DNA of 32,000 bases from Nitrosopumilaceae archaeon (GTDB taxonomy: Archaea; Thermoproteota; Nitrososphaeria; Nitrososphaerales; Nitrosopumilaceae): NCBI GenBank assembly GCA_035528495.1, contig DATKYM010000100.1, positions 72,784 through 104,783 of the forward strand, written 5' to 3'. Below the pieces are notes generated by a model that worked only from the letters and a program-made list of their open reading frames with translations, searched no databases and had not been told where the DNA came from. The position numbers and the translations under genes were made by a program. Shown here piece by piece: positions 1 through 14,972 of the stretch (within the stretch, counting starts at the first letter, position 1; each line of letters begins with the position of its first letter).

Positions 1-2660
1 TCAATTTCTTCTTTTGTTGCTTTCTTTCCTGAATCAATAAGAGTTTGTGATTCTATTAATCTAGTAACGTTAAATGCTTCACCATGATCACTTTTTGCCA
101 CATCAATTCCATCTTCTCCATACAAAAATTGAACAATGTGTCCATGTGGGTCTCTAACTGTTCCGTCATATTCTAATCTAATATGCTCAAGAGCATTAAT
201 CAATCGACGCTGCATGTATCCACTTTGTTGAGTTCTAACTGCAGTATCTACTAGTCCTTCTCTACCTCCCATCGCATGGAAGAAAAACTCTAGTGTAGAC
301 AGACCTTCTCTATAATTTGATTTTACAAATCCCTTTGCATCAGGATTTTTATCATGTTCTTGATAGTGTGGAAGGGCACGATTATGATAGCCAGAGTGTA
401 ATCTATTTCCCCTTCTTGATTGTTGTCCCAAAGCACCTGCCATCTGACCGATGTTTAGAGAAGAACCTCTGGCCCCGGTTGTTGCCATAATTCTTCCTGC
501 ATTAGTTTGATCTAAAGATTGATCAGCAGTGGTTCCGGCCTTATCTCTTGCCTTACCTAATTCGTTTACAATATAGGCCTCCAGAGCCTCTTCAGGTTTC
601 ATTCCTCGAGTTAGTTTTAGAGTTCCCTTTTCGTATTGAGAAGTTAAATCTGAAATTATATCATATGTTTCCTGAATGTTATCTAGAATTTGCTGTTTTT
701 CTTTTTCAGGAACTTCCAGATCTGCATAGCCATAACTAAATCCATAGGAAGTAATGTATTGTTTTACCATAATCAAGATTGAATTTAAAAATGATTTTCC
801 AGCAGCATTTCCATAATCTTTTGTAATTCTATGCAAAACACTCTCTGGTTCTTCAGCACCTATTGAGGCCTTGTCAATTACACCACTAATTAATTCACCT
901 TGTTTAATTACAACATCTTTTGGAGATCCGCCTGTTCCCTTTGACCATTTTGAAGTTATTACATAATTGAAGTCTTTAGGCAAGAATAATGAAAATAATT
1001 GTTTTCCAGTATAGGCAGCACCATCTTTTGTTTTAGCAGCAGGTTTTGGTAATGGTTCAGAATATCCACCAAGCATGGCAAGATTCGAGAATTCTTGAGG
1101 GGTTAAAACAGTATCATCTTTGGTTAGAAGATAAGCCCCAGTAACAAAATCTCTTAAAGCGCCGATGATTGGACCTCCATATCTTGGGGAAATTAGTTGA
1201 TCTTGAACTCTCATTAACAAAATTGCCTCAGCCCTGGCCTCTTCACTTTGAGGAACATGCAAGTTCATTTCATCACCATCAAAATCAGCATTATATGGTG
1301 GGCAAACTGATGGGTGTAATCTGAAAGTTCGTCCTGGCAAAACTCTAACATAATGCGCCATTATTGACATCTGATGCAAAGAGGGTTGTCGGTTAAACAT
1401 TACAATATCACCATTTGCCAGATGCCTCTCAATTAGATATCCAATTTCAAGAGTCTCAGCAATGATAGAACGGTCTTCAACAAAGTCAAGTCTAATCTTT
1501 ACACCATCTGGTCGAACGATATAATTTACACCAGGAAAATTACTTGGGCCATTAATTACAAGTTGTCTCATCCTTTCAATATTCCATTCAGTTACAATCT
1601 CAGGAATTGTTAATTTCATTGCAATTTGCTCAGGAACACCAACTTCCGATAAATCCAAGTTTGGATCAGGTGAGATTACTGTTCTGCTTGAAAAGTCTAC
1701 TCTCTTTCCAGATAAAGATCCTCTAAATCTTCCTTCTTTTCCTTTAAGTCTTTGAGTTAGTGTTTTTAGAGGTCTGCCAGAACGATGATGAGCTTGAGGA
1801 ATACCTGAAACTTCATTATCAAAATAAGTGGTTGCATGATATTGGAGTAGGTCCACTAAATCCTGAACAATTAAAGGAGGAGTTCCAGCTTCTTTACTTT
1901 CTTTAAGTCGTTGATTGACCCTGATTATATCTACCATTTTGTGCGTTAAATCATCTTCTGATCTAATTCCTGTTTCAAGGATAATAGATGGCCTAACTGT
2001 AACTGGTGCTACTGGCATTGCTTGTAGAATAAACCATTCAGGTCTTGCAGTTACTGGATCATAGGACAAAAGACTCAGATCAGCATCGGTGATTTGAGTA
2101 AATCTTTCTCTGATTGTAATTGGAAGTAATCTATGTTCACCTATCTCTGTTTTTTCTACAAAGATAGTTGGTTTGGTAAATATCAATTCATATTGTGTTT
2201 TTCCACAATGAGGACACTCTTTTGCTTTCTTTGCCTTTTCAATAACTTGTTCTGGAATACGTTTTTCTGAAAAAACAGTGTATGCCAAGTGTTTATCTTT
2301 AATTGCTTGTAATTCATCTAAATCTTCTTGAGGAACTCTTAGTCTTGCACAAGAGCGGCATGTAGATTGTAAGAGTTTATGGATATTATCAATAAATGCA
2401 ATATGTAAAATAGGTTCAGCAAGTTCTATATGCCCAAAGTGTCCGGGGCATCTTGCAGCAGTGTTTCCACAGGTTAGACATTTTTGTCCAGGTTCTAAAG
2501 TTCCTAATCTTCCATCCATTAATCCACCTTGAACAGGCATTCCATCTTCATCATATGTTTCAGGTGCAGTTATTTCGGAAACAGAATATTTTCTAATTTC
2601 AGTTGGAGACCAAACAGAAAATTTTATTCCGTCAATAGCTTTAATTGATTGAACCGACAT
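1..2660 (-). CDS. rpoA1: DNA-directed RNA polymerase subunit A (A'/N-terminal part; 3' end runs off the window)
   Basis: The minus-strand frame is open from ATG 2660-2658 to the window edge. It is absent from the ORF track because no stop lies inside the window. Hand translation gives MSVQSIKAIDGIKFSVWSPTEIRKYSV..., a Zn-binding CLTCGNTAARCPGHFGHIEL at 2421-2480, and the universal catalytic motif NADFDGDEMN at 1263-1292. The start overlaps the rpoB stop (TAATG). The order H-B-A is the canonical archaeal RNAP operon. Confidence 0.93.
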   Translation of the reverse strand, partial: MSVQSIKAIDGIKFSVWSPTEIRKYSVSEITAPETYDEDGMPVQGGLMDGRLGTLEPGQKCLTCGNTAARCPGHFGHIELAEPILHIAFIDNIHKLLQSTCRSCARLRVPQEDLDELQAIKDKHLAYTVFSEKRIPEQVIEKAKKAKECPHCGKTQYELIFTKPTIFVEKTEIGEHRLLPITIRERFTQITDADLSLLSYDPVTARPEWFILQAMPVAPVTVRPSIILETGIRSEDDLTHKMVDIIRVNQRLKESKEAGTPPLIVQDLVDLLQYHATTYFDNEVSGIPQAHHRSGRPLKTLTQRLKGKEGRFRGSLSGKRVDFSSRTVISPDPNLDLSEVGVPEQIAMKLTIPEIVTEWNIERMRQLVINGPSNFPGVNYIVRPDGVKIRLDFVEDRSIIAETLEIGYLIERHLANGDIVMFNRQPSLHQMSIMAHYVRVLPGRTFRLHPSVCPPYNADFDGDEMNLHVPQSEEARAEAILLMRVQDQLISPRYGGPIIGALRDFVTGAYLLTKDDTVLTPQEFSNLAMLGGYSEPLPKPAAKTKDGAAYTGKQLFSLFLPKDFNYVITSKWSKGTGGSPKDVVIKQGELISGVIDKASIGAEEPESVLHRITKDYGNAAGKSFLNSILIMVKQYITSYGFSYGYADLEVPEKEKQQILDNIQETYDIISDLTSQYEKGTLKLTRGMKPEEALEAYIVNELGKARDKAGTTADQSLDQTNAGRIMATTGARGSSLNIGQMAGALGQQSRRGNRLHSGYHNRALPHYQEHDKNPDAKGFVKSNYREGLSTLEFFFHAMGGREGLVDTAVRTQQSGYMQRRLINALEHIRLEYDGTVRDPHGHIVQFLYGEDGIDVAKSDHGEAFNVTRLIESQTLIDSGKKATKEEI

Positions 2661-5600
2661 TAGACTTTCTCCTTTATCAACAATCTGGGGGCTATATTCA
2701 AACTTTGCATTTCTTGTAACAATAATTTGAAAGCATATGCTACAGTAACCGATGATACTTTGGCTTTATCACCACAAACTCTACAAATATATTTTCTTTG
2801 TTTAACATCATGATAAGCTACTAAACCACATCTTTCACAAACAAAGATATCTGATTTATCGGATTCATCTAACAGTCTATCTTTTAGAATCATAGATGCA
2901 CCATAGGCAATAAGGCAATCTCTCTCCATTTCACCAAATCTTAAACCTCCACCCCTTGCTCGTCCCTCAGTTGGTTGTTTAGTTAACATTTGGACTTGAC
3001 CACGTGCTCTTGCGTGTATCTTATCTGCAACCATGTGATGTAATTTTTGATAATAAACTACTCCAATAAACACTTCAACTGGAAATGGTTTTCCAGTTCT
3101 TCCATCATACATTATTTCTTTTCCAGAATATTTGAAACCTACTGCATCCAAAACTGGTTTAACTTCTTCTAATTTTTCACCGACAAATGCAGAACCATCA
3201 AACTGGCTCCCTCTAAAAGCACCTGCTTTGCCGCAAATTGATTCCATCATCATTCCAACAGTCATTCTAGATGGAAATGCATGAGGATTGATAAGAACAT
3301 CAGGAGAAATTCCTTCTGCAGTATATGGTAAGTCTTCTGCTTTGGCTAAAATTCCAAGGACACCTTTTTGTCCGTGTCTTGATGCAAATTTATCTCCAAT
3401 CTCTGGGACTCGCATATCCCTTGCCCTAATTTTATACATTTTTCCTCCTTCGTTGGATTGCGTCATCACTACAGTATCAATAACTCCAGTTTCAGATGGT
3501 CTTACACCGATTGAAGTATCACGTCGATAAGGGCCAGTTGATTCGAATTCTCTATATTCTTCCATAAATCTTGGAGGACTAGTTTTTCCAATCAAGATAT
3601 CGCCGCCCTTTACAAGTGATTCAGAAGCGACGACTCCATCGTCTTCAAGAAGTCGATAGGCTTTTTCGCCTTTGTAACCTCGGATATTATCTTCAGCATT
3701 TGGGATTTCAAAATTATCACGCATTCCACCAGGATATTGTTTTGCCTCTGCATCATAAACTCTAAAGAAAAATGTCCTGCCAAGACCCCTATCAACTGAA
3801 GATTGACTCAAAACTATAGCATCCTCGATGTTATAACCGTCAAAAGGTAAAACAGCAACAACACAGTTTTGACCTGCTGGTCTATCTTCTAATCCAAGTA
3901 ATTTCATGGCTTTTGTATTTACCATAGGAGTTTGTGGATAAAGCATCAAATGTTGTCTGACATACGTACTTGTGTTCATCATTGGTGTTGAAAATCCTAA
4001 ACTCTGTTTTGCCATTGCAGATTCATATGTATTTCTTGGAGATTGATTGTGCTCAGGATATGGAATGATTGATGCTCCTGCACCTAGAATGGATGGTGGA
4101 AATACTTCTAGGTGAGTATGTTTCTTGACATCTTTATCGTCTAATGTAATGTAACAATTTTCCTCTTCATTAGCATCAATTAATTCAAGTACCCCCATTC
4201 TTAATAGATCATTCCAAGAAAGTAATTTTTTTGTTACCTTATCTAAGAGCTCCTGAGTTAGTAACGATTTATTATCTTTGATAATTATTAAAGGCCTTAA
4301 AACTCGTCCAGCATTGCAATTAACATAGAGTCTCTTAGTAGCACCCTCTGTGTCTGATTGATGGAATGAAATTCCCACATGAGGATGAACTTTTGAGTTT
4401 CTTCGTAAATCTCTAAGCGACTCTGCTAATTCTCCACCATCTTTGAAATATCCAATAAGACGACCATCAACAAATATTCTAGTTCCATCTTTTTTCAAAT
4501 CATCTTTTGCATCAAAGAAATGTACAGTACCTAAATCATATAGTTTTTCAATAATTTCTTCAGATGGGATGTTCACTGAGATAATTCCTGAAAGTGCAAG
4601 ATTTTTTACCAGACCACAATTAGAACCTTCAGGAGTTTCGCTTGGGCAAATTCTTCCAAAGTGTGTAGCATGCAAGTCTCTGGCTTCAAAGTTTGGTTGT
4701 GTTCTACTTAGAGGGGATTGTATTCTTCTTAGGTGGCTAATGGTGGAGAGATAGTTTGTTCTATCAAGAAGTTGAGTCACACCAACTCGTCCTCGCCCCC
4801 AATTCCCAGTTGCAATCGCATTGTTTAACTTATCACTAATTATTCCAGGACGAATTGCAGCAGCTACTGCATTTATTCCCCTTTTCTGACCGGATCTCTC
4901 TAATTGGTATTTCATATCTCTAACTAAATTTCTAAAAGCTGTTCTGAAAAGATCAGCTAACATTTGTCCTGCAAATTTAATCACTTTATTTCCATAATGA
5001 TCTTTGTCATCAGGGTAAATCCATCCTAGTTTTAATTCAAGTAGTTTACATGCCGCCTCCCCCAAAAATTGTGCTTTTTCTTTTCTGTTTTCAGGATGTT
5101 TTCCTAAGTGAGGTAAAAGCCCCCAATCTAAAAGAGTCTCCGCACGTTTAATCTGAAACTCCTCTAACATTCCTGGAGCAATTCTTTTACTGATGTAAAC
5201 AATCGAATCCTTAGAAGTAGGAACATCAGCAGCTTTTTCAAATGATCCTTCCAATTCATCTTGAACTTCTTCAACAAGGGAGACTGCTGCAGCTGTTTCT
5301 ATATCTGATTCTAATCCAAGTGCTCTCATCAAAATTACAACAGGAATATCTACAGGTGAGCCAGGGATTCTAGCTACGATGAGTCCATCATTTTTCATAA
5401 CTAATTCTAATTTTGCACGATAGCCAACAATTGATGAATAGACTTTAGCTTTGAAGACAATGTTTCCTCCAAGGGTTTCTCTATCGACAATTATTTTGTT
5501 GTACGAAAGATCTTCTAATCCTACTATTACTCTTTCAGATCCATTGATGATAAAATAGCCACCAGGATCATTAGGATCTTCTCCATGTTCAATTAATTTT

Positions 5601-6007
5601 TGCGATGAAAAATTATTCAAAACACATGCATTTGATTTAGCCATTACAGGAACATCACCAATGTGCACAAATCTAGATTCTAAGATTTTTCCATCTTCTA
5701 TTACACTGGCCTCCATCATAACAGGAGCTGCATATGAAACATTTCGAAGTCTTGCCTCAGCGGGAGTAATGTGAGTTATGGAACCATCAAGCTCCATCAT
5801 TCTTGGTTGTTGAAGTTTTACTTTACCTAATTGAATTCTGTAAGGGTATTCGGCATTTTCAATTTCTATTTGTCCTACTTCATTAATTATACTTTGAAGA
5901 CCTCTTTCCAAGAATTCGTCAAATGAATTAAGATGTTGTCTGGCAATTCCCTCTCTCTTTAAAATATCCTGAATAATAGGCCAACGTTTAGTTGAAGGGT
6001 CTGCCAT
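2660..6007 (-). CDS. rpoB: DNA-directed RNA polymerase subunit B (unsplit, 1115 aa)
   Basis: 1115-aa ORF with hallmark beta-subunit blocks (…YYQKLHHMVADKIHARARGQVQMLTKQPTEGRARGGGLRFGEMERDCLIAYGA…). It has a C-terminal Zn ribbon (CERCG…CRVCG). It sits between rpoH and rpoA with abutting or overlapping stop/start codons. Confidence 0.97.
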   Translation of the reverse strand: MADPSTKRWPIIQDILKREGIARQHLNSFDEFLERGLQSIINEVGQIEIENAEYPYRIQLGKVKLQQPRMMELDGSITHITPAEARLRNVSYAAPVMMEASVIEDGKILESRFVHIGDVPVMAKSNACVLNNFSSQKLIEHGEDPNDPGGYFIINGSERVIVGLEDLSYNKIIVDRETLGGNIVFKAKVYSSIVGYRAKLELVMKNDGLIVARIPGSPVDIPVVILMRALGLESDIETAAAVSLVEEVQDELEGSFEKAADVPTSKDSIVYISKRIAPGMLEEFQIKRAETLLDWGLLPHLGKHPENRKEKAQFLGEAACKLLELKLGWIYPDDKDHYGNKVIKFAGQMLADLFRTAFRNLVRDMKYQLERSGQKRGINAVAAAIRPGIISDKLNNAIATGNWGRGRVGVTQLLDRTNYLSTISHLRRIQSPLSRTQPNFEARDLHATHFGRICPSETPEGSNCGLVKNLALSGIISVNIPSEEIIEKLYDLGTVHFFDAKDDLKKDGTRIFVDGRLIGYFKDGGELAESLRDLRRNSKVHPHVGISFHQSDTEGATKRLYVNCNAGRVLRPLIIIKDNKSLLTQELLDKVTKKLLSWNDLLRMGVLELIDANEEENCYITLDDKDVKKHTHLEVFPPSILGAGASIIPYPEHNQSPRNTYESAMAKQSLGFSTPMMNTSTYVRQHLMLYPQTPMVNTKAMKLLGLEDRPAGQNCVVAVLPFDGYNIEDAIVLSQSSVDRGLGRTFFFRVYDAEAKQYPGGMRDNFEIPNAEDNIRGYKGEKAYRLLEDDGVVASESLVKGGDILIGKTSPPRFMEEYREFESTGPYRRDTSIGVRPSETGVIDTVVMTQSNEGGKMYKIRARDMRVPEIGDKFASRHGQKGVLGILAKAEDLPYTAEGISPDVLINPHAFPSRMTVGMMMESICGKAGAFRGSQFDGSAFVGEKLEEVKPVLDAVGFKYSGKEIMYDGRTGKPFPVEVFIGVVYYQKLHHMVADKIHARARGQVQMLTKQPTEGRARGGGLRFGEMERDCLIAYGASMILKDRLLDESDKSDIFVCERCGLVAYHDVKQRKYICRVCGDKAKVSSVTVAYAFKLLLQEMQSLNIAPRLLIKEKV

Positions 6008-6259
6008 CTAAATTTCCACCACATACCTATAGTAAAGACTCTTACCGGCAGTTGGACTTTTTCTAGTAATTTTTATCATATCTCCCGGTTTCACACCAAG
6101 TCCCATTATTGCAGGATCGTTTACAAAAATAAATGGTAATTCCGTTGGTTTGCAATTATATTTTTTTAAAATCTCTTCGGCCTCTTTTCTAGACATAATT
6201 TCATGAAGTGGAACATAAACATGGTCTGGTACGAGAACTTGATTTTTTTTAATTGCCAC
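6008..6259 (-). CDS. rpoH: DNA-directed RNA polymerase subunit H (Rpb5 C-terminal domain homologue)
   Basis: 83 aa with an Rpb5/RpoH pattern (VPDHVYVPLHEIMSRKEAEEILKKYNCKPTELPFIFVNDPAIMGLGVKPGDMIKITRKSPTAGKSLYYRYV). GTG start at 6259-6257 is preceded by GGAGGT (6272-6267, minus strand). Its stop (TAG) abuts the rpoB ATG. Confidence 0.9.
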   Translation of the reverse strand: MAIKKNQVLVPDHVYVPLHEIMSRKEAEEILKKYNCKPTELPFIFVNDPAIMGLGVKPGDMIKITRKSPTAGKSLYYRYVVEI

Positions 6260-6428
6260 TTTTTAAACCTCCATCAACAACATCAGATGTAACGATAAAT
6301 AATACACACAAACTGTCAAAAATTCGCGCTGAGGTTAATATATATCTAATCTGATTTCCGTCAGTATTTTTTCTTTTTAGTCAATAAAATTTTTCACAAC
6401 GTTAAATAGTATAATTCGGGGCGTAAAA

Positions 6429-7241
6429 ATGATGAAAACTCATCTATCGGTGTTTGCCTTATTTGCGATCATGATTGCAAGTATTGGAATGGCACCCGCA
6501 TTTGGACAAATAGTGCAACCAATCGTTGTTTCTACTGATAAAGACGCCTATACAGAGGGTGAGACTATCATGGTAACAGGAGAAGTAAGTGAAATTCTTT
6601 TCGGATATGCTGTTAGTCTCATGACTATAGCTCCCAATGGCAATGTAGTTTCAATTGACCAATTAATGGTTGGTTCTGATAAAAAATTCAATACAGAATT
6701 GTCTGCAGGAGGATCGCTCATGAAGGCTGGTGGAGAATACACGATTCAAGTCCTTTATGGAACCGAAAATAGAACAGCAGAGACATCATTCTCATTCCCA
6801 GGATCTAGCGGTTCTGAATCCAACCTTGTACAAGTAGAGGGAACCGACTTTATGATAGGATTTACAATCACAGGTGGAAAACTACTCTCAATCACACCTG
6901 ACGTAAATGCAAATTCTCTCATCATAGCAATTGATGCATGGGATGATGGTCAACTAACCATTACCTTGCCAAGAGAATTGATCGATGCAAAAATTGGAGA
7001 AGATGATGATGATTACTTTGTCCTAGTTGACGGTGAAGAAGTTGACTTTGATGAAACAACCACATCCACAGATAGAACTCTAACAATCCCATTCACAGCA
7101 GGTGCTGAAGAGATTGAAATTATCGGTACACATGTAATTCCAGAATTTGGTGCAATTGCAGCTTTGATTTTAGCAGTAGCAATTATTTCAATAATTGCAG
7201 TTTCTGCAAAATCAAGACTAAGTATTATGCCAAGATACTAG
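6429..7241 (+). CDS. secreted surface protein with PEFG-type C-terminal sorting tail, paralogue 1 (module A + module B)
   Basis: Signal peptide MMKTHLSVFALFAIMIASIGMAPAFG/Q. Module A of about 95 aa (STDKDAYTEGETIMVTGEV…APNGNVVSIDQL…GGEYTIQVLYG). Module B (…GGKLLSITPD…DGQLTITLPRELIDA…YFVLVDGEEV…AGAEEIEIIGTHV). C-terminus is PEFG + hydrophobic helix + SAKSRLSIMPRY. Confidence 0.85.
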   Translation: MMKTHLSVFALFAIMIASIGMAPAFGQIVQPIVVSTDKDAYTEGETIMVTGEVSEILFGYAVSLMTIAPNGNVVSIDQLMVGSDKKFNTELSAGGSLMKAGGEYTIQVLYGTENRTAETSFSFPGSSGSESNLVQVEGTDFMIGFTITGGKLLSITPDVNANSLIIAIDAWDDGQLTITLPRELIDAKIGEDDDDYFVLVDGEEVDFDETTTSTDRTLTIPFTAGAEEIEIIGTHVIPEFGAIAALILAVAIISIIAVSAKSRLSIMPRY

Positions 7242-7280
7242 ACCTACAACTTTTTTTCATTTTTTAAATATCTATAAATA
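7140..7280 (+). repeat. Direct repeat copy 1: PEFG-tail coding end + stop + T-rich spacer + TATA-like box
   Basis: 7152-7266 is 100% identical to 8992-9106. 7140-7242 equals 8059-8161 except for one synonymous T/C at 7151. The post-stop part (7243-7280) is roughly 85% similar to 8162-8199 by eye. Confidence 0.95.
7251..7280 (+). promoter_or_regulatory. Oligo-T terminator-like run followed by TATA-like box for the next paralogue
   Basis: T7 (7251-7257) and T6 (7260-7265) lie 10-24 nt after the stop. TTTTTAAATAT/CTATAAATA (7261-7280) lies about 26-45 nt upstream of ATG 7306. Archaeal termination at oligo-T and A/T-rich TATA boxes are established; the assignment here is by position only. Confidence 0.4.
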
Positions 7281-7305
7281 CCAAGATATATGGTATTGAA
7301 TCAGG

Positions 7306-8160
7306 ATGAATTTGAAAGATTCGACAACATCAATTGTGTTAGGTGTAATGGTATTCTCACTAATAACAATAAGTTCAATTCAACAAGATGTTTTTGCCGA
7401 TATGATGGGAATGTCTTTAACAGCAAAGGCAGCAGAAGGATCAGACACCATCTTAGTTCGCGGTCAAACATCTTCACAGGTTACAGATCTAACATTAACT
7501 GTAATTTCTCCTGATGGATTTAATAGATTGGCAGTTGCACAATTAACTCCCGATTCCGAGGGAAACTATTCTACAGAATTCAAAATAAGTCCCCTTTGGA
7601 AACAAAATGGTTTCTACACAATAACTGGAATGCAAAGTGTAAATAAAAATTCGTTGTACACAATGCAGGTAGAGGTAGAAGTGATTAATGGAATGGCAAT
7701 GGAAACAATGACAACAGAATCAAATTTGGTAACTGGTCTTTTAATGCCAAAAGAATCACAGATTTTCACAGGATTTACCCTAAGGGCTAATGCCATGGAA
7801 GGCTCTACCATCATAGGAATAACTGGACAATCAGATAGAACCAACTTGGATGTAATTTTGAAGGTTATTGCACCAAATGGAAACGTAGTATCTGTTAGTC
7901 AAATTACACCAAATTTAGATGGTAAATTTGCTAAAGACATTACAACAGGCGGTCCGTTATGGACTCAAGATGGTGATTATACAGTATCAGCTCATCAAGG
8001 AGATTTAGCCGATCATAATGCTTCTATAGTGGTAGGGATTATTGATGGTGTAGTTATACCAGAATTTGGCGCAATTGCAGCTTTGATTTTAGCAGTAGCA
8101 ATTATTTCAATAATTGCAGTTTCTGCAAAATCAAGACTAAGTATTATGCCAAGATACTAG
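7306..8160 (+). CDS. secreted surface protein with PEFG-type C-terminal sorting tail, paralogue 2 (module A duplicated, no module B)
   Basis: Signal peptide MNLKDSTTSIVLGVMVFSLITISSIQQDVFA. Two copies of module A (…ILVRGQTSSQVTDLTLTVISPDGFNRLAVAQLTPDSEGNYSTEFKISPLWKQNGFYTI… and …IGITGQSDRTNLDVILKVIAPNGNVVSVSQITPNLDGKFAKDITTGGPLWTQDGDYTV…). Tail PEFGAIAALILAVAIISIIAVSAKSRLSIMPRY is identical to paralogues 1 and 3. Confidence 0.85.
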   Translation: MNLKDSTTSIVLGVMVFSLITISSIQQDVFADMMGMSLTAKAAEGSDTILVRGQTSSQVTDLTLTVISPDGFNRLAVAQLTPDSEGNYSTEFKISPLWKQNGFYTITGMQSVNKNSLYTMQVEVEVINGMAMETMTTESNLVTGLLMPKESQIFTGFTLRANAMEGSTIIGITGQSDRTNLDVILKVIAPNGNVVSVSQITPNLDGKFAKDITTGGPLWTQDGDYTVSAHQGDLADHNASIVVGIIDGVVIPEFGAIAALILAVAIISIIAVSAKSRLSIMPRY

Positions 8161-8199
8161 ATCTATTACTTTTTTCATTTTTTAAATATACATAAATAG
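8059..8199 (+). repeat. Direct repeat copy 2: PEFG-tail coding end + stop + T-rich spacer + TATA-like box
   Basis: 8060-8161 is 100% identical to 8981-9082. The downstream spacer carries the same T-runs and an AAATATACATAAATA box as copy 1. Confidence 0.95.
8170..8198 (+). promoter_or_regulatory. Oligo-T terminator-like run followed by TATA-like box for the next paralogue
   Basis: T6 (8170-8175), T6 (8178-8183), then AAATATACATAAATA (8184-8198), about 26-40 nt upstream of ATG 8224. It is homologous to 7251-7280. Confidence 0.4.
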
Positions 8200-8223
8200 A
8201 GATTCTTGTGAATCGCATACAAG

Positions 8224-9081
8224 ATGAACAACCGTACGACGTTCGCGCTACTAGCCTTTTTGACTGCAGTCAGCACGTTAACTATGTCATCGGCATATGC
8301 TCAACTAGCCTGTCCTGATTGTGGATTAGATGATCCTAGAATAATTGCAAAGCAGTTATTACTTGACGATATTCCAATTTCAATTTGGACGGATAAATCA
8401 ACATATGACCATAATGACACGATTATCGTAGAAGGGCGCGTAGCAAATGTAGTTTCTGGGGTTCCAGTAACACTTACTGTAACGAGTTCCCTACATTCCA
8501 TCATCACAGTTGACCAAATCGTCGTTGATAATATGGGAAATTTTGCAACAATACTCAGTACAGAAGGTGCTCTTTGGAAACATGATGGAAGGTATATCAT
8601 TAAAGCTAATTATGGTAGTGCTGAAAAAAATAGTAGAGTACTAGTAGAGTTAGTTAATGGAGTAGTTTCTGAATCAATAAGTAAAACATGTGGTCAATCA
8701 GAACTTGATGTAATAGGCAATTGTGTGCCATTTAGTATTTCAGGTGGAACTGTAAATCGTGTAAATGTCAATACCAACGATAATTCTATCATCCTGATGA
8801 TCAGCGCAAATGTAGATGGAACGATTACATTAAGCCCATCTAAAGATGTCCTTGAAGGTCCCTTTATGGTACTTGTGGATGATGAACAATGGGATGATGC
8901 TGAAATCAATGGAAACGAAATCACAGTGATGTTCCTAGCAGGTGCTGAAAAGATTGAAATTTTCGGAACACATGTAATTCCAGAATTTGGCGCAATTGCA
9001 GCTTTGATTTTAGCAGTAGCAATTATTTCAATAATTGCAGTTTCTGCAAAATCAAGACTAAGTATTATGCCAAGATACTAG
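8224..9081 (+). CDS. secreted surface protein with PEFG-type C-terminal sorting tail, paralogue 3 (module A + module B)
   Basis: Signal peptide MNNRTTFALLAFLTAVSTLTMSSAYA/Q. Module A (WTDKSTYDHNDTIIVEGRV…VDQIVVDNMGNFATILSTEGALWKHDGRYIIKANYG). Module B (…SISGGTVNRVNVNT…DGTITLSPSKDVLEGPFMVLVDDEQ…AGAEKIEIFGTHV). Same identical PEFG tail. Confidence 0.85.
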   Translation: MNNRTTFALLAFLTAVSTLTMSSAYAQLACPDCGLDDPRIIAKQLLLDDIPISIWTDKSTYDHNDTIIVEGRVANVVSGVPVTLTVTSSLHSIITVDQIVVDNMGNFATILSTEGALWKHDGRYIIKANYGSAEKNSRVLVELVNGVVSESISKTCGQSELDVIGNCVPFSISGGTVNRVNVNTNDNSIILMISANVDGTITLSPSKDVLEGPFMVLVDDEQWDDAEINGNEITVMFLAGAEKIEIFGTHVIPEFGAIAALILAVAIISIIAVSAKSRLSIMPRY

Positions 9082-9106
9082 ACCTACAACTTTTTTTCAT
9101 TTTTTA
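8980..9106 (+). repeat. Direct repeat copy 3: PEFG-tail coding end + stop + T-rich spacer
   Basis: Identical to copy 1 over 8992-9106. The extended similarity to copy 1 starts at 8941 vs 7101 (166 bp, 4 mismatches). It diverges after 9106, so paralogue 4 has a different upstream region. Confidence 0.95.
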
Positions 9107-9142
9107 TTTTTGATAGTAAAGGAGATATAGAAATAATATGAA

Positions 9143-9961
9143 TTGCTTTTTGTGATAGTAAAGATTTTTTTTGTTTTAGCCATATTGATGTTTTCTAGCA
9201 TTCAGGCTTTTGCTCAAAGTGATGAAATTCCATTTCTTGTTGTAAAAACTGACGATAATCACTATGATGAGGGCGACATAATTGTAGTGTCAGGCCAAGT
9301 CCAAACTGTGATTGTTGAAACTCCAATTATTCTTCAAATTTGGTCCCAGGGAAATATGATTGACATTGCTCAATTTTTCCCAGCACAAGATGGTAGTTAT
9401 TCCCAAACAATTATTGCAGAAAAACCATTATGGAAAAATCAAGGGGAGTATGTGATTAGAATATCATATGGTACCGCAAATATTGCCGAAGCCTCAATTA
9501 CTTATACACCAAGGCAAGAATATCTGAAAACTACAGATAGTTTTGAGGTACAAATTCCAAATGGTGGTACCTTCGACCTAGAATATACCATCAATGGAGG
9601 AGAAGTCAAGAATATTATTCTTGACCCAAATAATTTCACTTTATTAATCCAAATCGATTCACCAGATGAGGGAACAATCTCTCTAAAAATTCCCAGAGAA
9701 TCCTTGGATGCTGAAAAATCTGACGGTCAAGATGAGACATTCATTGTTCTAATTGATGATATTCAAGTTCCTTATGAAGAAACAGAGACTAATTCCCAAT
9801 TACGATTCATCTCAATTAATTTTGAAGAAGGAGACTCTGAAATTGCAATCATAGGGACATTTATTGTTCCAGAATTTGGTGCAGTGGCCGCATTAATCTT
9901 AATATCAGGAATTATAATTTCAATAGGAATTTCCAAAAATAAGTTACTATTAAAAATTTAA
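9143..9961 (+). CDS. secreted surface protein with diverged PEFG-type tail, paralogue 4 (module A + module B)
   Basis: Signal peptide …FFVLAILMFSSIQAFA/Q. Module A (KTDDNHYDEGDIIVVSGQV…FPAQDGSYSQTIIAEKPLWKNQGEYVIRISYG). Module B (…INGGEVKNIILDP…EGTISLKIPRESLDAE…FIVLIDDIQV…GDSEIAIIGTFIV). Tail PEFGAVAALILISGIIISIGISKNKLLLKI. The start is non-AUG (TTG 9143 or GTG 9152); the first in-frame ATG (9188) would truncate the signal peptide. Confidence 0.8.
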   Translation: MLFVIVKIFFVLAILMFSSIQAFAQSDEIPFLVVKTDDNHYDEGDIIVVSGQVQTVIVETPIILQIWSQGNMIDIAQFFPAQDGSYSQTIIAEKPLWKNQGEYVIRISYGTANIAEASITYTPRQEYLKTTDSFEVQIPNGGTFDLEYTINGGEVKNIILDPNNFTLLIQIDSPDEGTISLKIPRESLDAEKSDGQDETFIVLIDDIQVPYEETETNSQLRFISINFEEGDSEIAIIGTFIVPEFGAVAALILISGIIISIGISKNKLLLKI

Positions 9962-9968
9962 ATTTTAA

Positions 9969-11126
9969 TTAAAAAGAATATTTTTCTTTAAAGGGTGAAA
10001 AAGCCCGCAGTTCTTTGACCACGTTTTTTAATATTTCAACAGTTTTATCCATCTCTTCTAAATTATTTGATGTCCCAATAGTGAGTCGTAAAGAACCTGT
10101 TATTTGCTCGTGAGAAAATCCCATTGCTTGGAGTACATGAGATGCTTTTTGTATTTGGACTGAACATGCAGAACCCGTAGATGCAGCAATTCCGAATTCA
10201 TCGAGTTTAATTAAAAGATCTTCGCCGTTAACGCCAAGAAAAGTCAAGTGAACATTATTTGGTAATCTTTCTTCAGGATGACCATTCAAGGTAACTTCAG
10301 GAATTTCTTGTATGATTTTGGTAGAAAGATAATCTCGTAATTCTTTCATTTTGGTGGAATTCTCCAAAAGATTAATGCTTGCCAGTTCACAGGCTTTTCC
10401 AAAACCTACAATGTTAGCTACATTTTCTGTTCCTGAACGTAAACCATTTTCTTGGCCACCACCTAGAATAATTGGATCTATTGAGATTCCATTTCTAATG
10501 TATAAGGCTCCTATTCCTTTAGGACCGTTAATTTTATGAGAAGAAATCGAAAGAAGATCTATTCCTAATTCTTTTACATTTATTGGGATCTTTCCTGTAG
10601 CCTGAACTGCATCAGTATGAAAAATAATATTTTTTTCTTTACAGATTTTGGCAAAATCAAATATTGGTTGAATTGTTCCCACTTCGTTATTTCCAAACAT
10701 GATAGAGACAAGTAAAGTATTTTCGGTGACGGAATTTTTTAAAATCAATGGATCTACCAATCCATAATTATTTACGGGTAGATGGATTATATCAAATCCC
10801 TCCTTGGCCAATATTTTACACGGCTCCAAAATCGCATCATGTTCGATCGATGAAGTGATAATGCGAGACTTGGGATTTTTCTTTGTTATTCCAAAAAGAA
10901 CCATATTATTTGATTCAGTACCTCCAGAAGTAAATAGAATTTCAGAAGGATCGGCGTTAATTAAATTTGCAATCTGTTTTCTTGCTTTCTTTACAGCTTT
11001 ACCTGCATCGCGGCCATACCTATGAATTGATGAAGGGTTTCCATATTGTTCCTTTAGATAAGGTAGCATTTCTTCAAGTACTAATTCATGTATTTTTGTA
11101 GAGGCAGCATTATCTAGATAAATCAA
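9969..11126 (-). CDS. nifS: cysteine desulfurase, NifS/IscS family (PLP-dependent, class V aminotransferase fold)
   Basis: Canonical N-terminus MIYLDNAAST, PLP-lysine block SSHKINGPKGIGALYIR and active-site Cys loop STGSACS. TTG start (11126-11124) overlaps the larE stop as TTGA. Confidence 0.92.
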   Translation of the reverse strand: MIYLDNAASTKIHELVLEEMLPYLKEQYGNPSSIHRYGRDAGKAVKKARKQIANLINADPSEILFTSGGTESNNMVLFGITKKNPKSRIITSSIEHDAILEPCKILAKEGFDIIHLPVNNYGLVDPLILKNSVTENTLLVSIMFGNNEVGTIQPIFDFAKICKEKNIIFHTDAVQATGKIPINVKELGIDLLSISSHKINGPKGIGALYIRNGISIDPIILGGGQENGLRSGTENVANIVGFGKACELASINLLENSTKMKELRDYLSTKIIQEIPEVTLNGHPEERLPNNVHLTFLGVNGEDLLIKLDEFGIAASTGSACSVQIQKASHVLQAMGFSHEQITGSLRLTIGTSNNLEEMDKTVEILKNVVKELRAFSPFKEKYSF

Positions 11127-11932
11127 TCTGCGATCACATTTATTTTTCCTGGTTTATACCCATCAGGATCTACAATAACATCTAAAAATCCAATTAATTT
11201 TAGTTTCTTGATAATATCTTCTAGAATTGCGCTATCCCTTAAAATCTGAATTTTGTCTTTTTCTACTTCTATTTTCGCTATACCATTTAAATCTCTCACC
11301 CTGACTTGTTTTAATTTTGTTCTTTGTTTTACAATTGTTTCTCCAAACTCTATTCTAAGTAATCTTTCAGATGTAATTTTTTGACCCCAAGGAATCCTAG
11401 ATGCTAAACAAGAATTAGAAGGTTTATCATAAACTGATAATCCAACGGATTTTGCAATTTCTCTAATTTCATTTTTATTTAATTGATTTTCTACTAATGG
11501 GCTTCGAATACCATTTTGTTTTAAAGCATCTATCCCAGGCCTATATTCCCCTAAATCATCCAAGTTTGTGCCATCCACAATTAATTCAATATCATGTTTT
11601 TTTGCTAAATCGACTAAATGAGTGCTTAATTCGTTTCTACAATGAAAGCATCTTTTAGAATCATTATTTACAAAATCTTCATTTTCAAGCTCATCATAAT
11701 CTATTAGAATTTGAGATATTCCAATTTCCGAGCAAATTTGTTTTGAAGTTTCAAGTTCTTCTTGTGATAATGTTTTGTAATCAGCAGTAACTGCAATAGC
11801 AGAAGATCCTAATTTTTGATATGCAGCATATGCTACTAAAGCACTATCAACTCCACCAGATAGAGCGACAAAAACACGATTCTTATCTTCAAACCAATTC
11901 GTTAGATTTTCAAGTTTAGTCATGTTCAACAT
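11123..11932 (-). CDS. larE: LarE-type ATP-dependent sulfur transferase (PP-loop ATP pyrophosphatase) for nickel-pincer nucleotide cofactor synthesis
   Basis: PP-loop LSGGVDSALVA, a LarE-like SNSCLASRIPWG block (Cys175) and a CFHC pair (Cys95/Cys98). It lies 2 nt downstream of larC and overlaps the cysteine desulfurase gene. Confidence 0.88.
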   Translation of the reverse strand: MLNMTKLENLTNWFEDKNRVFVALSGGVDSALVAYAAYQKLGSSAIAVTADYKTLSQEELETSKQICSEIGISQILIDYDELENEDFVNNDSKRCFHCRNELSTHLVDLAKKHDIELIVDGTNLDDLGEYRPGIDALKQNGIRSPLVENQLNKNEIREIAKSVGLSVYDKPSNSCLASRIPWGQKITSERLLRIEFGETIVKQRTKLKQVRVRDLNGIAKIEVEKDKIQILRDSAILEDIIKKLKLIGFLDVIVDPDGYKPGKINVIAD

Positions 11933-11934
11933 TC

Positions 11935-13152
11935 CTACCGTATGATTTCTTTTCTAATCAATAGTTCGGTTTCCTTAATTGATTTATTGAGGTGGTTTGC
12001 GATTTTTTTCAAATCGTCAAATTCAATTTTAAAGGTAGATTTTCCTTTAAAAGTTGAAGATTTGTATCTTACATCAAAGATTTCATTTTCCAAAGTTATT
12101 TTTACTTCATTGGTTGTTCTTGGGACAGTTATTCTATCAGAGGACATAACTCGTATTCCCAAGGTTCCAGTTTCGGTAATCAAAGTATCAGTTATCTTCT
12201 CCATGGTGGTATAATCACATATTATAGATACAAGATTTGTGGGTCTGCCTTTTTTTGTAATTCCATGATAAATGGATGCATCCTTGGCACCATCAACCAT
12301 AATTTTTTCAATTAGATTTCCCAATATTTCCCCAGAAACATCATCTACATTTGTTTCGAGAATAATAACTGAATCAGTTTCAAAATTATTTTTTAACCCC
12401 TTTACAATTTTTACCACATTAGAGAAATTATCAAAATCATTTTTCCCTGCCCCATATCCAATAGAATTGATTTTCATTGAGGGATAAAATTCAATTGGAG
12501 TATTAGTTAAATTTACTAAAATACAGGCCCCAGTCGGAGTAGTTAATTCATTTTTTACAATACTGCCATGAATTATCAAATTAGAATTTTTTAAAATTTC
12601 AAGAACTGCACTTGCAGGATTAGTCATTGTTCCATGTGAGAAAGTTATCGTGCCACTTCCAACACAAATGGGCATAGAGACGATTTCGTCATCGAAAAAG
12701 CCTAAATCATCAATTGCTATTCCAACTCCTATTATGTCAACAAGAGTATCAATGCTTGATGCCTCATGGAAATGAACAGATTCTATTGAAATTCCATGAA
12801 TTTTTGATTCAGCTGCAATAAGAGTATCAATGCAAGATTCCACAAAAATTTTTGTCCTCTTAGATAGCCCCAATTCGTTTGCTGATTTTTTTATAGCTTG
12901 TTTAATTTCAGAGCCCTTTCTTTCATGTGTTTTTTCATCGATATCTAAAATTAACGCAGTGGATTCTATTCCATGTTTATTGACTTTGATAAAATCAATT
13001 TTTTTTATGTTAGAATCTGGAAGAAATTTTTTTGAAGATTGTATTCCATCAAGTATCTTATTTTTATTTGCCCCCAAATCAACTAAGGAGCATAAAATCA
13101 TATCCCCAGATATGCCAGCTACATATGGATCTATAACGATGACCATAGACAA
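11935..13152 (-). CDS. larC: LarC nickel insertase (DUF111/UPF0272 family)
   Basis: 405 aa. The N-terminus …VIDPYVAGISGDMILCSLVDLGAN matches the LarC/DUF111 signature (…D.FSGISGDM.LGAL.DLG). Size and synteny with larE fit. Confidence 0.88.
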   Translation of the reverse strand: MSMVIVIDPYVAGISGDMILCSLVDLGANKNKILDGIQSSKKFLPDSNIKKIDFIKVNKHGIESTALILDIDEKTHERKGSEIKQAIKKSANELGLSKRTKIFVESCIDTLIAAESKIHGISIESVHFHEASSIDTLVDIIGVGIAIDDLGFFDDEIVSMPICVGSGTITFSHGTMTNPASAVLEILKNSNLIIHGSIVKNELTTPTGACILVNLTNTPIEFYPSMKINSIGYGAGKNDFDNFSNVVKIVKGLKNNFETDSVIILETNVDDVSGEILGNLIEKIMVDGAKDASIYHGITKKGRPTNLVSIICDYTTMEKITDTLITETGTLGIRVMSSDRITVPRTTNEVKITLENEIFDVRYKSSTFKGKSTFKIEFDDLKKIANHLNKSIKETELLIRKEIIR

Positions 13153-13238
13153 AAAATAACTAAAAATGCATATAAATTATGTCTAATTAATTCACAAATT
13201 TCACTAGATTTAATTAATGAAATTTAACACATCTTTTC

Positions 13239-14153
13239 ATGATTACAATTATAGGATCCGGAAAGGTTGGTGGAGATGCAGCATTATTTTCTGCATTAAA
13301 ACGATTAGACGATCAAATATTGTTACTTGATGTTGTTGATGGACTCCCTCAAGGAGAAGCAATGGATATCAATCATATGTTATCAGAGCAAGGAATTGAC
13401 GTAAAGGTTACAGGTTCTAATAATTTTGCCGACATGGAAGGTTCTAAAATAGTTGTAGTTGTGGCAGGTTCTGGAAGAAAACCCGGAATGACTAGAATGG
13501 ATCTTTTAAAAATCAACGCTAATGTTGTTAAAAGCGTTGTTGAAAATATAAAAAAACATGCAAATGATTCTATGATTATCCCAGTTACAAACCCCTTAGA
13601 TCCAATGGCTTACGTCACTTACAAATCATCAGGATTTGAGAAAAACAGAGTTTTTGGAATGGGTGGAATGCTAGATTTGTCAAGATTTAGACAATTTATC
13701 CATGAAGCTACAGGACATTCTCGTGATTCCATTAGAGCGCTTGTAATAGGGGAACACGGTGAAAACATGTTACCACTTCCTAGGTTTTCATCTGTTTCAG
13801 GTATCCCTCTATCTTCATTTCTACCAAAAGAAAAATTAGATGAAATTGTTCAAAATACAAAGCAAGTTGCGGCAAGAGTAATTGAATTAAAGGGGGCAAC
13901 TGTTCATGCTCCTGGAAATGCCATCTCTGCAATTATAGAATCAGTTGTAAGAGATAGGAAACAGATAATTCCAGTCGCCACATATCTTGATGGGGAATAT
14001 GGGCATTCAGATGTCACAATTGGAGTGCCAGCAATAATCGGAAAGAACGGCGTAGAAAAAATAATAGAGTTAGATCTTAATGACGAAGAGAAAAAAATAT
14101 TTGATCTAGGGGTAAAAAATGTAAAGGAAGCCATTTCGGGTATGGAAATCTAA
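13239..14153 (+). CDS. mdh: malate dehydrogenase, LDH-like family
   Basis: Rossmann start [12 protein letters not shown]. The substrate loop [15 protein letters not shown] has Arg at the position that is Gln in true lactate dehydrogenases. Also GEHGENM and a typical length of 304 aa. Confidence 0.9.
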
Positions 14154-14156
14154 GCC

Positions 14157-14163
14157 TTTTTTT
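14157..14163 (+). terminator. oligo-T run just after mdh stop
   Basis: T7 starts 3 nt after the TAA of mdh. However, larB begins only 24 nt later at a forced TTG start, so read-through or co-transcription is also plausible. Confidence 0.3.
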
Positions 14164-14186
14164 ATTCAATAACAATTTAATCATTA

Positions 14187-14972
14187 TTGGAAATTCAAGA
14201 AATTCTAGAATCATTGGAAAGGAGAAAAATTTCTACTCAAACTGCCAAAAAAATGTTGTCACTTTATTCAATCGAACAAATAGAAAATATAGCTAAAATT
14301 GACGTAAATAGAAGAAAAAGAAGAGGAATACCTGAAGTAATTTTTGGAGAAAGTAAATCTATTGACGAAATAAAGAAGATCCTCAAAATTACATTGGAAA
14401 AAACCAATTCAGTAATTGTGTCTAGAATAAAACCAGAAGATTATCCTAAAATAATTTCTTTTTGTAAACGATTGAAAATAAAAATAAAGGTGGGGAAAAA
14501 ATCATCCTCACTTTTATTATTTAAAAAACCAATTAAATTCAATGGAGGTAAAATTGGGATAATAACTGCAGGGACATCAGATATTGGAGTAGCAGAAGAA
14601 GCAAGATTGATGTGTGAAGCTATGAATTGCAAAAGCATTACAAGTTATGATGTTGGAGTTGCAGGAATTCAACGAATATTTCCTATTTTAAAAGAAATGA
14701 TAGAAAAAGAGGTTGATTGCGTCATAGTTGTAGCTGGAATGGAAGGTGCTTTGGCAACATTGGTTTCTTCTATGGTAGATATTCCCGTTATTGGAGTACC
14801 TACATCTGTTGGATATGGTTATGGTGAAAAAGGAATTGCAGCCCTTGCTTCAATGTTACAAAGCTGTTCGCTGGGCTTATCTGTTGTAAACATTGATAAT
14901 GGAATTGCAGCAGGTGCCATTGCAGCTAATATTTCCAACAGAGTCAATGGCAAAAACAAAAAGACGGAATAA
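14187..14972 (+). CDS. larB: LarB, pyridinium-3,5-biscarboxylic acid mononucleotide synthase (PurE/AIR-carboxylase-like)
   Basis: N-terminal helix plus …NRRKRRGIPEVIFGESKS…, then GIITAGTSDIGVAEEA and VVAGMEGALATLVSSMVDIPVIGVPTSVGYG, all characteristic of LarB. The TTG start is forced: an in-frame TAA lies at 14178-14180 and the homologous N-terminus begins immediately after it. Confidence 0.88.
   Translation: MEIQEILESLERRKISTQTAKKMLSLYSIEQIENIAKIDVNRRKRRGIPEVIFGESKSIDEIKKILKITLEKTNSVIVSRIKPEDYPKIISFCKRLKIKIKVGKKSSSLLLFKKPIKFNGGKIGIITAGTSDIGVAEEARLMCEAMNCKSITSYDVGVAGIQRIFPILKEMIEKEVDCVIVVAGMEGALATLVSSMVDIPVIGVPTSVGYGYGEKGIAALASMLQSCSLGLSVVNIDNGIAAGAIAANISNRVNGKNKKTE

Follow-up and report, generated by a model that had tools for sequence, protein, structure and literature searches.

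Near-identical PEFG-CTERM tails in three tandem surface-protein genes of Nitrosopumilaceae, probably maintained by gene conversion

In described cases of concerted evolution such as tufA/tufB and the rRNA operons (theory in PMC3924837 and PMC3966226), paralogues within a genome are closer to each other than orthologues are between genomes, and the same relation holds for the 3' ends of three tandem genes in the DNA analysed here, a stretch of 32,000 nucleotides from a Nitrosopumilaceae archaeon (assembly GCA_035528495.1, contig DATKYM010000100.1, positions 72,784 to 104,783 of the forward strand; hereafter the window). These 3' ends encode PEFG-CTERM tails, putative C-terminal sorting signals of surface proteins. 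The mammalian BEX/WEX/GASP genes (PMC1274310) may represent a comparable situation, namely partial-gene conversion over coding and non-coding ends with diverged functional domains beside them. With the PGF-CTERM/archaeosortase A system of Haloferax volcanii and with PEP-CTERM/exosortase systems, the tails share the tripartite C-terminal signal of secreted proteins (motif, transmembrane helix, basic cluster), and by analogy the signal would presumably be cleaved off or give way to a lipid anchor. Tandem emm-like genes of Streptococcus pyogenes have conserved C-terminal anchor regions and seem to offer a further parallel, as a terminal module and its untranslated region (UTR) stand beside diverged domains in tandem surface genes. 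To our knowledge, nothing is known experimentally about the processing of PEFG-CTERM proteins. In the searchable literature, where PEFG-CTERM appears in just four papers, we found neither a nucleotide-level homogenisation of the signal among neighbouring substrates of PGF-CTERM or PEP-CTERM systems, nor a link of archaeosortase-type signals or of Nitrosopumilus to gene conversion.

Tails of g1, g2 and g3 within and between genomes

The source organism is a marine, ammonia-oxidising member of the Thaumarchaeota. Positions 6429-9961 of the window hold a tandem quartet of plus-strand genes, g1 to g4, encoding predicted secreted beta-sandwich proteins. The PEFG-CTERM family corresponds to NCBIfam TIGR04296, a hidden Markov model (HMM) with a cutoff of 25 bits, which is passed by g1, g2 and g3 and failed by g4. 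The genes and their tail segments are the following.

6429-7241, + strand: g1, 270 amino acids, two-domain beta-sandwich protein with PEFG-CTERM tail, predicted to be secreted, TIGR04296 41.3 bits
7306-8160, + strand: g2, paralogue of 284 amino acids with PEFG-CTERM tail, TIGR04296 41.2 bits
8224-9081, + strand: g3, paralogue of 285 amino acids with g1-like two-domain plan and PEFG-CTERM tail, TIGR04296 42.6 bits
9143-9961, + strand: g4, paralogue of 272 amino acids with divergent 30-residue tail, TIGR04296 19.6 bits, under the cutoff
7140-7241, + strand: tail block copy 1, 33 codons and stop (PEFG, transmembrane helix, KSRLSIMPRY end)
8059-8160, + strand: tail block copy 2, identical to copy 3 and one nucleotide off copy 1
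8980-9081, + strand: tail block copy 3, identical to copy 2
7101-7139, + strand: upstream extension of the g1/g3 near-identity (partner 8941-8979, 3/39 mismatches), encoding the last beta-strand AGAEEIEIIGTHVI

From CCAGAATTTGG to the TAG stop codon, a block of 102 nt is identical in g1, g2 and g3, with a GGT/GGC wobble at 7151 as the single exception. Between g1 and g3 an exact match extends over 115 nt (7152-7266 = 8992-9106), 25 nt of it beyond the stop codon, and only 4 of 166 positions differ between 7101-7266 and 8941-9106 (at 7110, 7122, 7127 and 7151). The identity of g2 and g3 spans 8059-8161 and 8980-9082. As direct repeats, the copies are spaced 919 and 921 bp apart. These observations, as well as the continuation of the similarity through the oligo-T runs, reproduce what the initial annotation of this DNA had described by eye. 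The same applies to its statement that the ectodomains are far more diverged, as those of g1-g3 share 59-61% of their nucleotides and 32-41% of their amino acids. Because the ectodomains differ to this extent, the tail identity goes far beyond chance and protein-level conservation, and selection on the protein is indeed insufficient to account for it. The g4 tail shares only the PEFG codons with the tail of g1, after which 37 of 93 nt differ.

A scan of one genome per GTDB species gave 80 loci with a g1 orthologue; related loci are designated by L-numbers in the following. Across these loci the four-gene array recurs in the same order by rpoH, with 33-residue tails in g1-g3 and a tail of ~30 residues in g4, and it is also present in cultured Nitrosopumilus strains. 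The comparison of arrays between genomes, proposed in the initial annotation, was run on the 43 genomes having all three long tails, with distances expressed per 99 nt. Within genomes, tail pairs differed on average at 3.06 positions and 31% of them were identical. Between genomes, the mean distance was 9.74 for the same gene position and 9.84 for different positions. Since these two distances are equal, the tail is without orthology signal. When genome labels were permuted in 2000 rounds, the lowest mean was 8.76 compared to the observed 3.06. The ectodomains are clean orthologues across genomes, and as within-genome paralogues they are saturated at synonymous sites. Expressed as NG86 proportions of synonymous (pS) and non-synonymous (pN) differences, the within-genome paralogues show a pS of 0.06-0.11 in the tail compared to 0.66 in the ectodomain (ectodomain pN 0.43-0.51), and the between-genome orthologues a pS of 0.24-0.29 in the tail compared to 0.48-0.56 in the ectodomain (ectodomain pN 0.21-0.27).

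Furthermore, lineage-specific synonymous states are present in all three copies, for example in L019 compared to L016. A metagenome scan with a window-specific 60-mer retrieved a single contig, the sister-strain array L081, and no dispersed copies or junction variants. Tail position 31 is T throughout the copies of the window and of L081 and C throughout those of L005, and at position 18 each L081 copy has C. Tails that are closer within than between genomes, lack an orthology signal and carry lineage-specific synonymous changes in all three copies support the earlier suggestion of recent gene conversion. The gene g4 follows 62 nt downstream of g3; its tail shows no homogenisation and has the synonymous rate of its own ectodomain, and g4 serves as an internal negative control outside the homogenised group. 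In 11 genomes on contigs >250 kb, the tails had 1.9 mismatches on average. As long-contig and chromosome-level assemblies show the same pattern, smoothing or collapse of the repeat in short-read assemblies is not its cause.

Taken together, the array bears the marks of concerted evolution: a delimited tract, normal orthology of the flanks with deep divergence of the paralogues, lineage variants shared among the copies, and mosaic tract ends. We consider it highly probable that the tails of g1-g3 are kept near-identical by recurrent short-tract gene conversion, with the module under strong purifying selection. Recombination as the mechanism is suggested by the pattern of the tails together with the within- and between-genome statistics. 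The identical segments would represent the PEFG-CTERM modules (motif, transmembrane helix, basic cytoplasmic end) of three tandem surface-protein genes, which are old paralogues, each with its own orthologues throughout the Nitrosopumilaceae. Non-reciprocal homologous recombination between direct repeats ~920 bp apart would homogenise the tails. The loss of homology would set the ends of the conversion tracts: the PEFG codons on the 5' side, and on the 3' side the stop codon or a point as far as ~25 nt inside the oligo-T terminator. Between g1 and g3, the tracts may occasionally extend into the common last beta-strand. Purifying selection on the peptide sequence of the signal could keep the copies similar enough for continued conversion, and g4, with its diverged tail, would be out of the exchange.

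Extent of the homogenised block and its spacers

Averaged over genomes, within-genome divergence is 0.2-0.8 upstream of the PEFG codons, falls to 0.01-0.04 exactly at these codons and climbs right after the stop codon, so that the homogenised block extends from 0 to ~102 nt from the PEFG start. As the last domain of g2 differs, g2 has no homology to g1 and g3 upstream of 'IPEFG'. The upstream strand of g1 and g3 is homologous, yet in most genomes it is no more alike within than between genomes. The near-identity from 7101 in the window is hence a lineage-specific longer tract, because most other genomes lack an excess of within-genome similarity there. Tract ends in the window are mosaic, running from 12 to 127 nt from the PEFG start for g1-g3 and from 0 to 103 nt for g2-g3. 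The g2 tail of L003, L004 and L006, which form a clade, has left the exchange (6-13 mismatches) and retained an orthologous variant, with g1 = g3 in these loci. The mosaic ends and this escape fit recurrent, episodic short-tract conversion.

The spacers downstream of the tails contain the following elements.

7242-7266, + strand: 3' UTR and oligo-T terminator-like run after g1, identical to 9082-9106
8161-8184, + strand: 3' UTR and oligo-T run after g2, related to the runs of g1 and g3 with 3 substitutions and 1 indel
9082-9106, + strand: 3' UTR and oligo-T run after g3, identical to 7242-7266
7265-7280, + strand: TATA-like motif AAATATCTATAAATAC, ending 25 nt upstream of the g2 ATG, putative promoter element
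8183-8198, + strand: TATA-like motif AAATATACATAAATAG, ending 25 nt upstream of the g3 ATG, putative promoter element

Archaeal transcription terminates at oligo-T stretches, and the runs listed above may serve as terminators; a scan for bacterial-type promoters and terminators was set aside as not applicable to an archaeon. Spacers 1 and 2 share the motif AAATAT(CT/AC)ATAAATA. Its variant AAATATCTATAAATAC is specific for spacer 1 and retained in L005, L009, L014 and L015, and the spacer-2 motif AAATATACATAAATAG is retained in nearly all species. Upstream of g4, a conserved GATAGTAAAGGAG motif occurs in place of the AAATATACATAAATA motif that precedes g2 and g3. The edit distance of the g2-g3 3' UTRs was 3.3 within genomes compared to 5.9 between genomes, and 3' UTR pairs involving g1 showed no excess of within-genome similarity. 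In the promoter zone of the spacers no concerted signal was found, and position-specific variants persist across species. The initial annotation had counted the conserved spacers as part of the concerted evolution. This applies only to the first ~25 nt past the stop codon, which sometimes fall in the conversion tract; the similarity of the promoter-like part is orthologous conservation and not conversion.

In several related loci the spacers carry insertions. Directly past the tail terminator and between array genes, L033 (6844-9321), L065 (7764-10262), L067 (6838-10049) and L080 (6841-10732) contain insertions of 2.5-3.9 kb that encode IS240/IS6-type DDE transposases with a SWIM zinc finger. 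Inserts of 250-990 bp occupy the same spacer position in L017 (7753-8020), L038 (7781-8030), L077 (2482-2750), L059 (7776-8252), L019 (6826-7656), L034 (1613-2234) and L043 (6820-7809 and 8692-9397). Many of these start with AAGATTCT..GTAATC-like sequence, and a TauE-family exporter gene is present in one; the inserts showed no clear terminal inverted repeats. The T-rich spacer looks like an insertion hot spot. Between array genes of L037 (6865-11204), from a 2.8-Mb 'Nitrosopumilus' assembly, lies a segment of 4.3 kb with foreign-looking, GC-rich open reading frames (ORFs) that contain low-complexity Ser/Leu/Ile runs and KKES repeats, and which may be a chimeric join or a foreign insertion. 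In two metagenome-assembled genomes (MAGs) the g3 tail is disrupted, as the PEFG codons run into g4-like sequence (L007:7785-8603) or the tail is interrupted by a run of N (L069:7783-8652); both cases are probably assembly problems at the repeat.

Alternative explanations and a hairpin inside the tail

The initial annotation had predicted from the repeats an easy expansion, contraction or reshuffling of cassettes. The array could be regarded as a variation system with labile copy number and order, its repeats being used for unequal crossing-over or for a programmed shuffling of cassettes. With lengths of 102-125 nt and spacings of 919 and 921 bp, the direct repeats would allow this, and two MAG contigs match the product of a deletion between the tails of g1 and g3: in L010 (5953-7700) and L024 (1112-2856), the g1 ectodomain and tail are followed by a g3-type 3' UTR and then directly by g4, with g2 and g3 missing. 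However, both are short-read contigs, and the junction is either a real tail-to-tail deletion or, equally, a misjoin across the repeat. Of 48 informative arrays, ~42 contain exactly three long-tail genes in unchanged order, and no array contains more. Moreover, g1-g4 are full-length genes, and each has a start codon, a predicted signal peptide, a promoter-like motif and a putative terminator of its own. Silent cassettes are absent, and the orthology of the ectodomains is clean. The array does not reshuffle, and a role in variation is very unlikely. The initial annotation had also named an assembly error as a possible refutation, the repeat being collapsed, duplicated or smoothed to a consensus. 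Short-read assemblies are indeed interrupted by repeats of such length: among the contig ends in related loci, 17-18 of 42 lie no more than 160 nt after the PEFG motif (L011, L013, L021, L038, L039, L042, L044, L049, L052, L053, L055, L056, L061, L062, L071, L075 and L079 end near tails), and protein databases hold many 'partial PEFG-CTERM' fragments of 35-70 amino acids. The clustering of contig ends after PEFG indicates that assemblies break at a real repeat. As the source of the identity, however, an assembly artefact can almost certainly be dismissed, since 43 independent genomes show the pattern, some of them assembled to chromosome level or in long contigs, with 0 mismatches in L016, L019 and L059 and at most one in L017 and L046. 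In addition, the copies of the window differ at 7151 and in their flanks, and cultured strains agree in gene order. A recent whole-gene duplication was ruled out as well, as each paralogue has orthologues across genera and the synonymous sites of the ectodomains are saturated. It might further be argued that there is no conversion and that every tail nucleotide is under site-specific purifying selection, due to a function of the RNA or DNA or an extreme codon preference. Between species, the tails have diverged less than the ectodomains, and the tail of a dispersed, unrelated PEFG-CTERM gene (L082), from a genome unpaired with any array, is just 7-13 nt from the array tails of other species and is followed by a 3' UTR unrelated to those of the arrays. 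Yet the tails vary at ~10 of 99 nt between species, mostly synonymously, and each genome carries its variants in all three paralogues. Tails of one genome are separated by 3.1 nt, far less than the 9.7 nt between genomes, and equal distances for same and different positions are impossible from constraint alone, which makes this explanation extremely unlikely. The constraint on RNA or DNA considered in the initial annotation is therefore contradicted as the sole cause, but it is partly true: synonymous sites evolve at about half the ectodomain rate in the homogenised tails and not in the tail of g4.

This slow rate is also one of several points that weigh against gene conversion as a complete account. 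Between species, the synonymous divergence of the tail is about half that of the ectodomain, and conversion alone would not lower divergence between species. Codons for the same amino acid differ in 0.19-0.23 of the tail cases, compared to 0.30-0.45 expected from ectodomain rates; at such positions of the g4 tail, 45.5% of the codons differ compared to 44.9% expected. Something more must therefore act on the tail nucleotides. Moreover, no conversion event was directly observed, and many of the compared genomes are MAGs. Theory holds that conversion raises the efficiency of selection, by which weakly selected sites slow down and neutral sites are unaffected (PMC3924837). Candidate causes of the slow synonymous sites are a more efficient selection of codon choice under conversion or a structural element, for which the tail contains one obvious candidate.

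7163-7216 (also 8082-8135 and 9003-9056), + strand: interrupted 21-bp inverted repeat (predicted hairpin), tail positions 24-77

Compatible with gene conversion is the idea that, in addition, the tail segment is selected as a nucleic-acid element, with the hairpin forming in mRNA or DNA; we regard this combination as unlikely. It is likewise doubtful that the hairpin block, present in g1-g3 and not in g4, doubles as such an element and thereby explains the half-rate synonymous evolution family-wide. In mRNA, it could link the translation of the anchor with its insertion into the membrane or its processing by the sortase, cause a translation pause or stabilise the 3' end; in DNA, it could initiate recombination or trigger template switching among the three copies. 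Folding of the shared segment, as proposed in the initial annotation, yielded a minimum free energy of -25.5 to -27 kcal/mol, corresponding to z of -2.3 to -2.9 compared to dinucleotide shuffles (g4 tail z = -0.08). Over 125 distinct tails, 89% of the cells are paired and 97% in the inner helix. Both partners have changed in eight cells, which belong to three pairs; at 42-57, A-U became G-C in at least two lineages, and at 45-54 the pair flipped from U-A to A-U. None of 500 column shuffles reached the observed covariation score. In addition, the most variable wobble positions (39, 48 and 63) are unpaired, and the halved synonymous divergence is confined to the homogenised tail. Compared to synonymous recodings of the same peptide, however, z is only -1 to -2.2, and the segments of L058 (+1.8) and L009 (+0.2) are less stable than expected. 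Because the native sequence barely beats these recodings, much of the hairpin follows from the palindromic A-I-I-S-I-I-A peptide. Controls with slid partners matched the real structure in their number of double-change cells, the wobble positions beyond the hairpin (3, 15, 21, 93, 96 and 99) are conserved to the same degree, and conversion theory predicts slow weakly selected sites without any structure (PMC3924837). There is also no Rfam match, as a scan of 6000-10200 returned only a sub-threshold snoRNA match that was taken as chance. Selection on the hairpin structure may be considered possible but unproven. A function as bacterial-style intrinsic terminator was ruled out, since the hairpin lies inside the coding region and ends 35 nt before the T-run.

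Proteins, genomic setting and related systems

The tails of g1-g3 have the canonical length of 33 residues (30 in g4) and consist of PEFG, the hydrophobic transmembrane helix AIAALILAVAIISIIAV and the basic cytoplasmic end SAKSRLSIMPRY. In g1, the TIGR04296 HMM covers residues 236-265 of 270, which is the extreme C-terminus. The N-termini of g1-g4 are hydrophobic and end with AFGQ, AYAQ or AFAQ, and may act as export signals. More than 120 orthologues of g1 were found, which JGI names 'predicted secreted protein with PEFG-CTERM motif'. An AlphaFold (AF2) model of g1 based on 77 homologues (mean predicted local distance difference test score, pLDDT, 75.6) has a hydrophobic helix at the N-terminus, followed by two beta-sandwich domains and, at the C-terminus, a further helix (241-263). 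A search of PDB structures with this model returned only generic Ig/MG-like beta-sandwich matches (Fab, T-cell receptor, complement C3) and no specific function. In g2, the ectodomain (7306-8058) consists of two N-terminal beta-sandwich domains in tandem, an internal duplication whose halves align with a BLOSUM62 score of 138; this ectodomain has a weak MG2 match and is without the C-terminal 'stalk' domain common to g1, g3 and g4. According to published work, PEFG-CTERM proteins are abundant, co-expressed with amo genes and upregulated 4-10 times under H2O2 stress. PEFG-CTERM is the thaumarchaeal counterpart of PGF-CTERM-type signals (PMC6593220).

Searching 1.84 billion representative proteins for the tail gave only 199 clusters, mainly array-type proteins of 260-310 amino acids or fragments. 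The remaining clusters include beta-propeller, cupredoxin/DsbA, plastocyanin and MG2-domain proteins with tails that are 81-91% identical. As this level of identity is found in unrelated PEFG-CTERM proteins, the g1-g3 tail is the family-wide consensus signal under strong protein-level selection, and the g4 tail a variable outlier. When only the tail, padded to 40 amino acids, served as protein query, 29 short fragments were retrieved, many of them truncated calls at contig ends, and no full-length families. The tail sequences suggest archaeosortase-type processing; no archaeosortase-family enzyme was found among the window ORFs scanned. The last beta-strand xIEIIGTxVIPEFG and the preceding domain (7020-7139, 8860-8979 and 9750-9868) recur in unrelated PEFG-CTERM proteins (P0213, P0238 and P0231), among them a beta-propeller and an HExxH protein. 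Stalk and anchor may therefore form a common module that has been shuffled among families. The beta-propeller family P0213 is rare, with 25 homologues, none of them in a genome whose array was analysed.

The array is flanked by rpoB/rpoH on the minus strand (2660-6259) and by a NifS/IscS-type cysteine desulfurase gene (9969-11126). For three cultured Nitrosopumilus strains including N. maritimus, the proteomics supplement of PMC6593220 lists rpoA', rpoB, rpoH, four PEFG-CTERM proteins and the cysteine desulfurase, followed by mdh and, further on, S13, S4 and glmS. As cultured strains have the same gene order, the window represents a conserved region of the core genome. The start of g4 (region 9139-9160) is uncertain: the listed ORF opens at TTG 9143, and ATG 9139 is out of frame and reaches a stop after 5 codons. 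Elsewhere in the window, homologues of LarE, LarC and LarB (nickel-pincer cofactor biosynthesis) surround a malate/lactate dehydrogenase-family gene at 11123-14972, and no LarA was found among the ORFs scanned. A minus-strand gene at 17215-18186 encodes a protein with a CFI-box-CTERM domain (73 bits, cutoff 40), another C-terminal sorting/maturation tag, and adjoins an ORF of 1062 amino acids (18240-21428, minus strand) without match in NCBIfam or Pfam. At 24054-25112 (minus strand), a protein of 352 amino acids has only a partial multicopper-oxidase/NirK-like domain (79 bits, cutoff 296); its gene overlaps the start of a ZIP-like transporter gene (22886-24064) by 11 nt.

The array offers a clear natural case of module-restricted concerted evolution in Archaea, comprising at least 43 species, three ancient neighbours and, with g4, a built-in negative control. 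The locus points to the consensus PEFG-CTERM tail as the part of these abundant, stress-responsive surface proteins that is most under selection, which is useful with regard to the uncharacterised thaumarchaeal sortase system. For genomics, the repeat has the consequence that short-read MAG assemblies break at a core-genome locus, seeding databases with partial fragments and possibly with chimeric joins. That synonymous sites of the converted block evolve at half the rate agrees with the prediction of more efficient selection at weakly selected sites under conversion, and this rate could serve as a test of the prediction.

If gene conversion is accepted as the explanation, the mechanism is ordinary concerted evolution. 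As in tufA/tufB and the rRNA operons, exchange would be non-reciprocal and homology-dependent, and a diverged copy can escape, here g4 and, in some lineages, g2. In contrast to these systems, only a terminal module of 102 nt is homogenised while the rest is 59-61% identical at the nucleotide level, the boundary lies exactly at the sorting motif, and the state persists across a whole archaeal family. Compared to the emm-like and BEX genes, the array belongs to another domain of life and relates to archaeosortase-type PEFG-CTERM anchoring rather than LPXTG. With Neisseria pilE/pilS and Borrelia vlsE it shares conversion among tandem surface-protein sequences with conserved segments. In those systems, however, silent cassettes diversify one expression site, whereas here a constant module is homogenised among three complete and presumably separately expressed genes, with no silent cassettes, with ectodomains that are stable orthologues and with an order fixed in ~42 of 48 arrays. 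The particular features of this locus are thus the restriction to a 102-nt sorting module, its boundary at the motif, the family-wide persistence, the adjacent escaped copy and the reduced synonymous rate.

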